Assembly: GCF_055900595.2 (NCBI RefSeq)
Contig: NZ_CM148325.1
Length of the DNA: 64,000 bases
Strand: one strand, 5' to 3'
Both the position numbers and the translations under genes were made by a program. The notes beneath the pieces are model-generated. The model was given only the letters and a program-made list of their open reading frames with translations. It was not told where the DNA came from and searched no databases. This document shows, in pieces, positions 46,759-47,636 of the stretch (the stretch's first letter is position 1; the number at the start of each line of letters is the position of its first letter).

Positions 46759-46983
46759 ATGAGTGAGAATACCGGAAAATCCCATGAAAATAAAATGGTT
46801 ATTATTGACTGCGGGGAATATGATGAATACCTTCGTAACGCGTGGTTCCGAGGTTTTCGGGAAGGTTATGATATGGCGATGAAATTTGGATTAGGCTGCC
46901 AGCAATGTTATGAAACAGGTGAAAAAATAGCATGCGCAAGAGCTGAAGAATGCCGTAAAAAGATTAAGGTAATAAAACACTGA
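46759..46983 (+). CDS. Hypothetical small Cys-containing protein (74 aa)
   Basis: MSENTGKSHENKMVIIDCGEYDEY...GLGCQQCYETGEKIACARAEECRKK; internal Met of track ORF 46624..46983; no family recognised. Confidence 0.3.
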   Translation: MSENTGKSHENKMVIIDCGEYDEYLRNAWFRGFREGYDMAMKFGLGCQQCYETGEKIACARAEECRKKIKVIKH

Positions 46984-47111
46984 AACGGGCTGTCTGATAT
47001 TTCTGTGAGCTAAAAAGACACCGTAATACAGGTATCTCACAGTAACTGAAAGATATGCACATGCCGCCAGGGAAGATTAAGGGTAAGGGAGGATATCCCT
47101 TACCTGATTGA

Positions 47112-47636
47112 TTATGGGATGATACCACAGGCAATTCTTGCACCACCGCCACCTAGAGGTTCAGGATGGTCATCATGATTATCACCTCCTGCGTGGAGCA
47201 TTAGCGAACGGCCATCGAGCTCCTTTAATTCAGATAGTCTTGGCGCAAGCACCGGGTAGGTTGCTTTTCCGTCATGAGTGACATAAAGCGCAGGGAGATC
47301 ACCTAGGTGGCCATCAGGAGACCATGGACCGAGATGCTTCCCTGTTTTTTCCGGGTCAAAGTGACCACCTGCAGATAAAGCAGCGACAGTTTTTCCATCT
47401 TTCAGGGCAGGAGCACAACTTGCGTTTTCATGTACATGAAAACCATGAATGCCGGCGGGTAAGGAGTGAAGATCAGGGGTGAACAGCAGCCCGTAGGGTG
47501 TCTTCTGGATGGTTATTTTACCAATATTTCGCTCTTTTCCGTCACTATCAACAAGATTCATTGTTACATCTTTGGTGGCTGCATATCCACAGGATGATGT
47601 AGCCAGAATCACAAAGGCAATAAGTTTACGTTTCAT
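47112..47636 (-). CDS. sodC: Periplasmic Cu,Zn superoxide dismutase
   Basis: Signal peptide plus [52 protein letters not shown]. Confidence 0.85.

Follow-up and report, generated by a model that had tools for sequence, protein, structure and literature searches.

Does an accessory superoxide dismutase gene of mobile ancestry carry a protein partner along with it? The question is raised by a 64,000-nucleotide stretch of DNA (NCBI RefSeq assembly GCF_055900595.2, contig NZ_CM148325.1), which we refer to as the window. Within it, sodC (47112-47636, minus strand), an accessory gene for a periplasmic Cu,Zn superoxide dismutase of 174 amino acids, converges across a 128-bp spacer with a small open reading frame (ORF) of 74 amino acids (46759-46983, plus strand), an orphan gene for a predicted cytoplasmic helical hairpin. 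The original prediction, made from the sequence alone, had described an accessory sodC facing a small ORF with a CxxC pair and further cysteines in a region scarred by insertion sequences (ISs), and the pair, its orientation, the cysteines, and the scarring were all found where it had placed them. The reading that we favor, if only slightly, is that the two genes form a mobile oxidative-stress cassette in which an accessory SodC is joined by a thiol- or metal-dependent accessory small protein.

The product of the small ORF is MSENTGKSHENKMVIIDCGEYDEYLRNAWFRGFREGYDMAMKFGLGCQQCYETGEKIACARAEECRKKIKVIKH, which includes the segment noted in the original prediction, GLGCQQCYETGEKIACARAEEC. It contains five cysteines (C18, C47, C50, C58, and C65), with C47 and C50 making up the CxxC motif, and its RefSeq entry is the hypothetical protein WP_024210520.1; the window's sodC is likewise already annotated in RefSeq. 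By blastn, the window matches a Klebsiella pneumoniae contig over 1109 bp at 85.2% identity, and this homology ends abruptly at both edges (46593 and 47700), outside which the two DNAs are unrelated on either side. The interval from 46593 to 47700 thus defines a conserved 1.1-kb, two-gene cassette composed of the small ORF, sodC, and their control regions. Identity between the two copies is 89% in sodC, 86% in the small ORF, 79% in the ORF leader, and 76% in the intergenic spacer; indels are present in the leader and in the spacer, and there are none inside the small ORF. We looked in the window for flanking repeats that would delimit the cassette and found no meaningful ones. A longer, 119-amino-acid frame starting from the ATG at 46624 was rejected because a 1-bp indel disrupts it in the Klebsiella copy.

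An exhaustive phmmer search over 1.84 billion cluster representatives yielded one further lineage of the small ORF, encoding 75 amino acids on a metagenomic contig (L014) and sharing 63% identity with the window's protein over the matched stretch and 54% over the full alignment. This brings the lineages found to three (E. coli, Klebsiella, and L014), in each of which the ORF lies less than 1 kb from a sodC. The original prediction had asked for a homolog search and a check of the neighborhood, and both came out in its favor, with the ORF conserved and its adjacency to sodC kept in all three. No additional lineage was recovered by a profile and word-indexed search of 5.8 billion proteins or by motif scans of 100,044 GTDB species genomes and IMG/VR, a scan of JGI metagenomes returned E. 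coli-type copies only, and a six-frame ORF scan with a hidden Markov model across 113 loci (including 80 chromosomal sodC loci and the sodC contexts of prophages, plasmids, and fimbrial islands) gave no other copy below an E value of 1. As judged from these searches, the small gene is an orphan limited to part of a mobile sodC clade.

Is the small ORF a protein-coding gene at all? Between the window and Klebsiella, its dN/dS (the ratio of nonsynonymous to synonymous substitution rates, by the Nei-Gojobori method) is 0.22 with a dS of 0.43, and the synonymous excess has a binomial p of 4e-4. Against the L014 copy, where synonymous sites are saturated, the proportion of synonymous differences (pS) is 0.92 and that of nonsynonymous differences (pN) is 0.26, falling to 0.145 when only the core of the protein is counted (p = 7e-8). 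The remaining frames of the region have omega values of 0.5 to 1.2 or contain stops. Across 15 to 30% nucleotide divergence, the start, the stop, the length (74 to 75 amino acids), and the Shine-Dalgarno sequence are kept. The last of these, as read from the sequence, is a GAGG at 46747-46750 (plus strand), 8 nucleotides ahead of the ATG; GAGGT is kept in the Klebsiella copy, and AAGG occupies the matching place in L014. In addition, none of the 1.84 billion cluster representatives searched with phmmer is a larger protein that contains the sequence, and therefore the ORF is not a gene fragment.

These data bear directly on the possibility that the ORF is nonfunctional, being a chance frame, a decaying remnant, or a stretch whose conservation reflects a nucleotide-level element or recent ancestry. 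A chance ORF of such length is possible in DNA of 40% G+C, and many overlapping ORFs of at least 40 amino acids occur here on all frames. The protein has no family or structure match, and disruption of the ORF by ISs is tolerated. One segment, 46869-46955 (M39 to C65), also shows unusually little nucleotide divergence from Klebsiella (3 differences in 87 nucleotides), and its dS is 0.24, versus 0.67 in the N-terminal half; this low divergence may be due to chance or to an added nucleotide-level constraint. However, the synonymous bias occurs in this frame only, the length, start, stop, and Shine-Dalgarno sequence are kept without indels although the flanks have them, and the protein is not a piece of a larger one. 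The AlphaFold2 fold is confident and compact, and an Rfam scan found no RNA family across the cassette. We therefore regard a nonfunctional ORF as very unlikely and conclude, from these substitution patterns, that the small ORF is very probably a genuine protein-coding gene under purifying selection.

The identity of its neighbor is clearer still. The sodC product matches Pfam Sod_Cu (PF00080) with an E value of 6e-32 and 111 bits against a cut-off of 28.9, and it matches the NCBIfam SodC equivalog NF007628 with 218 bits against a cut-off of 165. In an alignment of SodC proteins, the copper ligands H67, H69, and H148, the bridging histidine H92, and the zinc ligands H101, H110, and D113 are invariant, as are the disulfide pair C74/C170 and the catalytic R167, which align with those of solved SodCs. 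The closest solved structure is that of Salmonella SodCI (1EQW/6D52; 221 bits), and E. coli SodC (1ESO) scores 191 bits. Inspection of the N terminus shows the n-h-c arrangement of a signal peptide, and this stretch aligns with the leader sequences of SodCs that are exported; Cys16 of this predicted signal peptide is kept in the window's protein (..TSSC-GYAA). On these residues and scores, the gene almost certainly encodes a Cu,Zn superoxide dismutase.

It is not the conserved chromosomal copy. Of 5426 complete E. coli genomes, 5425 have the core sodC (b1646, in the gene order ydhK-sodC-ydhF) but only 125 have the cassette, and the two SodC proteins are only 57% identical. Some E. coli genomes carry the cassette at 2 to 4 places. 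Chicken or poultry isolates account for at least 22 of 40 sampled cassette-carrying records, and poultry-derived E. coli and E. albertii carry an identical sodC on IncF plasmids. In a neighbor-joining tree, the window and Klebsiella SodCs group together with a bootstrap of 100; their neighbors are a clade of SodCs from phages and plasmids, and the core SodC is distant. Bootstraps are only about 50 to 60% at the deeper nodes, with about 54% for the sister relation to the phage and plasmid clade. Because of the identity to the core protein, the near-universal core gene set against the sparse cassette, the IncF copies, and the position in the tree, the window's sodC is read as an accessory, horizontally acquired second copy of a mobile lineage. 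The original prediction would have been overturned by a conserved chromosomal sodC in its usual place or by a small ORF lacking conservation, and neither is the case.

Its general remark that acquired sodC copies are typically prophage-borne does not extend to this one. SodC of Stx2a-converting phage is about 79 to 80% identical to the window's protein, and the SodCs of Fels-1 and Gifsy-2 are 59.5 to 62% identical (60% and 59.5%, respectively, among phage records); all three phages carry their sodC as a moron flanked by tail genes. The present copy resides in an IS-rich island and on IncF plasmids, with prophage sodC as its sister clade at the bootstrap values given above. Among GTDB species representatives, there was no SodC nearer than 80% (E. 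albertii, of the phage type) or about 67% (Serratia and Pseudomonas). A separate relative of 82% identity is paired with a NERD/UvrD-helicase gene on ParA/ParB plasmids of about 100 kb and on chromosomes; in the chromosomes, this pair adjoins filamentous-phage genes (Zot, secretin), which is another mobile context of the clade.

What kind of protein does the small gene encode? Its conserved core motif is R-[ND]-A-W-[FY]-R-G-F-R-E-G-Y. The residues invariant across the lineages include Y21, D22, R26, A28, W29, R31 to Y37, and F43 to L45, together with C47, Q48, Q49, C50, E52 to K56, R61, C65, and the C-terminal histidine. The protein has neither a signal peptide nor a hydrophobic segment. AlphaFold2, run on a five-sequence alignment, returned a model with a mean predicted local distance difference test (pLDDT) score of 82 and values above 90 over residues 21 to 60. 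The predicted structure is a helical hairpin (helices 18 to 42 and 47 to 68); two short strands close it, and helix 2 starts with the CxxC motif. Helix 1 contains a G32-x3-G36 motif and many aromatic residues, and a single face of helix 2, as read from the sequence, presents C47, C50, G54, I57, C58, and C65. Metal sites between subunits or a redox-active C47/C50 pair are possible in such a protein.

Several known families were considered and rejected. The Rmf/CrpP family (NF041886) resembles the small protein in that both are small and helical and have a W-x2-G-[WF]-R-E motif in helix 1. Its match reached 12.3 bits against a cut-off of 28, covered 13 residues, and was obtained with the L014 protein only; hhalign gave a probability of 8% against a hand-entered sequence of E. 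coli Rmf, and there was no PDB match. YdhL, a cysteine-rich small protein of the DUF1289 family encoded near the core sodC, is unrelated (hhalign probability, 0.6%). A CopZ/Atx1-type metallochaperone with an MxCxxC motif was dismissed for want of a Pfam HMA match and because the model is an all-alpha hairpin rather than a ferredoxin-like fold. The H-x3-C-x2-C motif of zinc-binding anti-sigma (ZAS) proteins does not fit, since residues 43 to 50 read F-G-L-G-C-Q-Q-C, with phenylalanine in place of the histidine at -4. A thioredoxin-fold oxidoreductase would have its CxxC at a helix N terminus, as here, yet there is no beta-sheet and no Pfam match. The small protein thus belongs to no described family.

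How could the two products act together? In a picture that its sequence supports well, SodC would be exported via its signal peptide and loaded with copper and zinc in the periplasm, where it would dismutate superoxide of external origin, such as that released by phagocytes, and so add to the stationary-phase activity of the core SodC. The small protein would be a thiol- or metal-dependent accessory factor linked to oxidative-stress defense; it could sense redox state or metals, modulate expression of the cassette, or handle copper or zinc in the cytoplasm. The separate parts of this proposal differ in strength. Functional coupling of the small ORF to sodC is a tentative suggestion. That the small protein acts specifically by metal or redox chemistry is rather doubtful. 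The most specific version, in which it is a dedicated partner of the mobile SodC, either a thiol- or metal-responsive switch of expression or a cytoplasmic Cu/Zn factor favoring metallation, we consider unlikely.

The case for coupling comes from the history of the pair. For sodC, the comparison between the window and Klebsiella gave a dN/dS of 0.09 and a dS of 0.46 (Nei-Gojobori), and the near-equal dS values of sodC and the small ORF argue for co-inheritance. At the protein level, the Klebsiella small protein and SodC are 81% and 91% identical to those of the window, and the L014 proteins are 54 to 63% and 71% identical, respectively. On L014 the gene order is sodC (208-732, minus strand), an IS3 remnant, the ORF (1485-1712, plus strand), and katG (2177-4348, plus strand), so that the two genes, convergent in E. 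coli and Klebsiella, are divergent there. The sequences show co-inheritance, in which the small gene has accompanied this line of sodC while synonymous sites became saturated and the gene order was permuted. Direct repeats at positions 1-40 and 1222-1255 of L014, which resemble IS ends (GAAG(G)TGTCTAnATTATCnnTGGCGATTCA), flank its sodC and hint that the permuted order was produced by IS-mediated movement; the repeat was looked for in the window and was not found. Downstream of the L014 katG is an 83-amino-acid ORF with no Pfam match.

The same history can be read as hitchhiking, in which the orphan gene is real but plays no part in superoxide dismutation or oxidative stress, and its adjacency to sodC is a historical accident of a fragment of about 1 kb moved by ISs and recombination. 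This alternative is a serious contender, somewhat short of an even chance, and we give it about the same likelihood as functional coupling. It draws on the IS-rich contexts of the cassette, among them the IS-end-like repeats that bracket the L014 sodC, and on the small number of lineages, since with three the adjacency may be a single inherited state rather than one that was selected independently. Speaking for coupling, the pair has stayed adjacent although synonymous sites are saturated, all other neighbors have changed, and the order has been permuted; the third neighbor in L014 is katG, another oxidative-stress gene; and purifying selection implies that the small protein does something.

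Further observations weigh against a thiol- or metal-dependent partner of SodC. Closer relatives of this mobile sodC on prophages, plasmids, and other islands commonly lack the small ORF, from which it follows that SodC functions without it. Within E. coli, the cassette is intact in 105 of the 125 carrier genomes, and the other 20 (about 16%) keep sodC without an intact cassette as a result of IS insertions at three or more distinct positions, including about codon 21, 46888, and 46964 in the small ORF and 47051 in the spacer; because ISs have disrupted the ORF several times, it is dispensable for sodC retention. Both observations also speak for hitchhiking. Two of the five cysteines, C18 and C58, are not conserved, and a C18Y variant segregates within E. 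coli. The model places C50 and C65 on one continuous helix with about four turns between them, and a mononuclear metal site within one monomer is therefore unlikely; a pseudo-dimer fused through a linker was modeled by AlphaFold2 with low confidence (pLDDT, 59; predicted template modeling score, 0.48). The small protein has no match in Pfam, PHROGs, or PADLOC, nor among PDB sequences even at E values of up to 10, and a fold search with the model returned generic helical hairpins only; the idea of the original prediction, a metal-binding or regulatory partner, finds no homology support in these searches or in NCBIfam. Lastly, a cytoplasmic protein cannot act directly on a periplasmic SodC. Given these caveats, we still lean slightly toward the oxidative-stress cassette with its accessory small protein, and it is within this reading that the narrower proposals of coupling, chemistry, and partnership keep the lower standing assigned to them above.

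The noncoding parts of the cassette contain several candidate control elements. Between the convergent genes, a G+C-rich hairpin at 47081-47105 is terminator-like on both strands and kept in Klebsiella, making it a candidate bidirectional terminator. In the leader of the small ORF, a perfect 14-bp palindrome read from the sequence (AAAAGTATACTTTT, 46719-46732) is identical in Klebsiella despite only 79% identity of the surrounding noncoding DNA, and it could be an operator or a hairpin in the 5' untranslated region. The region upstream of sodC (47637-47700, minus strand) has a promoter-like TTAACA-16-TAAACT and is 89% identical to that of Klebsiella up to the point where homology ends. It includes an inverted repeat, ACTGTT-N7-AACAGT (47673-47691), that is nearly conserved in Klebsiella and is a candidate binding site for a regulator.

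Such elements raise the possibility that what matters is transcription rather than the peptide, with convergent transcription tuning sodC by interference or by overlapping 3' ends and the peptide being secondary. The two genes do converge 128 bp apart on a single shared hairpin, and the leader palindrome and the upstream region are conserved. However, the genes are divergent in L014 with an IS remnant between them, and the protein is under purifying selection there all the same; moreover, the shared hairpin resembles a terminator on both strands. A role in cis or by antisense is thus the least probable of the explanations considered here, even below a nonfunctional ORF.

The surroundings of the cassette were described from the RefSeq annotation of a twin locus in E. 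coli AR_0085, which is 99.9% identical over the surrounding 20 kb, and from Pfam scans; a 2-kb region is also 99.9% identical to E. coli chromosomes such as that of APEC O2-211. By this annotation, the cassette sits in a mosaic, IS-rich accessory island of E. coli. About 1 kb to its left lies the remnant of an IS3-family transposase (45191-45834, minus strand), the scar noted in the original prediction, with an HTH_21 domain at 45191-45532 by Pfam; the corresponding place in the twin is annotated in RefSeq as an IS3 family transposase that is frameshifted and truncated. Beside this remnant is a subthreshold match to the Hfq-binding small RNA isrC (45760-45842, minus strand; 33.5 bits against a gathering score of 39, E = 9e-5). 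Directly left of the scar is a paralogous yah-like cluster (36084-44517) with genes for carbamate kinase, DUF1116, FdrA-like, DUF2877, ankyrin-repeat, and LysR proteins, and the LysR gene is cut by an IS3 insertion in some genomes. Directly upstream of sodC and on the same strand is an operon for an SBP_bac_8-type ATP-binding cassette (ABC) importer (47732-51608, minus strand). The Klebsiella contig likewise has an ABC importer upstream of sodC on the same strand (1688-4438), but of the unrelated FecCD/Peripla_BP_2 family.

Farther away, Pfam identified two S6-peptidase (SPATE-type) ORFs of 1371 and 1291 amino acids (21616-25731 and 57137-61012), of which only the former has an Autotransporter beta-domain, and a YadA-anchor protein (28064-28981). 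These three suggest a mosaic resembling a pathogenicity island. Other island genes include those for phosphotransferase system components, a glycerophosphodiesterase, a ROK regulator, and an AbgT transporter. Within about 10 kb of sodC in the twin locus, the neighbors are IS remnants, the LysR gene, the yah-like cluster, the ABC transporter, GDPD, and ROK. No tRNA genes were detected in the island region, no phage structural genes were found near sodC in the annotation of the twin locus or by Pfam, and there was no PADLOC match to antiphage defense.

What would the pair mean for the biology of its hosts? Accessory SodCs are recognized fitness and virulence factors in Salmonella and in enterohemorrhagic E. 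coli, and the sodC described here is in circulation among poultry-associated E. coli and E. albertii, carried by islands and IncF plasmids. If the small protein is a dedicated partner, the cassette would be an unrecognized two-gene module (three with katG) of transferable oxidative-stress defense in the Enterobacteriaceae. Should the protein influence how SodC is expressed or metallated, periplasmic oxidative-stress defense would gain a new small-protein component, and the partner would be a functional small gene overlooked by family databases. Otherwise, what is left is a well-delimited mobile sodC cassette plus another orphan small gene. We found no description of a cassette of sodC and an orphan ORF, with katG in one lineage, in the searchable literature; for the island sodC or its partner, the literature held only one published alignment, in which the enzyme appears as 'E. 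coli SodC2'.

Finally, we compared the window's genes with known SodC systems. The core SodC of E. coli (b1646, 1ESO) belongs to the same family and has the same catalytic residues, but it occupies a different, fixed locus. It is monomeric and is expressed in aerobic stationary phase only, while SodC-F1 and SodC-F2 of E. coli O157:H7 prophages form dimers, have greater stability, and are produced in log phase and under anaerobic conditions, with SodC-F1 partially lipid anchored via the cysteine of its signal peptide (D'Orazio et al., PMC2569942). The window's SodC resembles SodC-F1, SodC-F2, and the SodC of the Stx2a phage in its mobile clade, in the cysteine-containing ...SCGYAA leader, and in being the product of a second or third, accessory sodC of pathogenic E. 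coli, and by this likeness to SodC-F1 and SodC-F2 we infer that it may also be a robust, host-adapted enzyme. It differs from them in location and company. The phage genes lie between the lambdoid genes gpI/K and gpJ without a small partner ORF, whereas the window's sodC is found in an IS-scarred island and on IncF plasmids with no phage genes nearby and is accompanied by the 74-amino-acid protein. SodCI of Gifsy-2 and SodCIII of Fels-1 are similar in being acquired periplasmic Cu,Zn superoxide dismutases that act as virulence accessories, but the tree puts them in other clades, and they are morons of prophage tail regions with no homolog of the small ORF nearby. Taken together, the window's SodC sides by sequence with those of prophages and not with the core enzyme of its host, and its gene lies outside the lambdoid tail-gene slot of a prophage moron. 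The sodC part of the cassette is thus a further member of the accessory mobile SodCs, alongside SodC-F, SodCI, and SodCIII.

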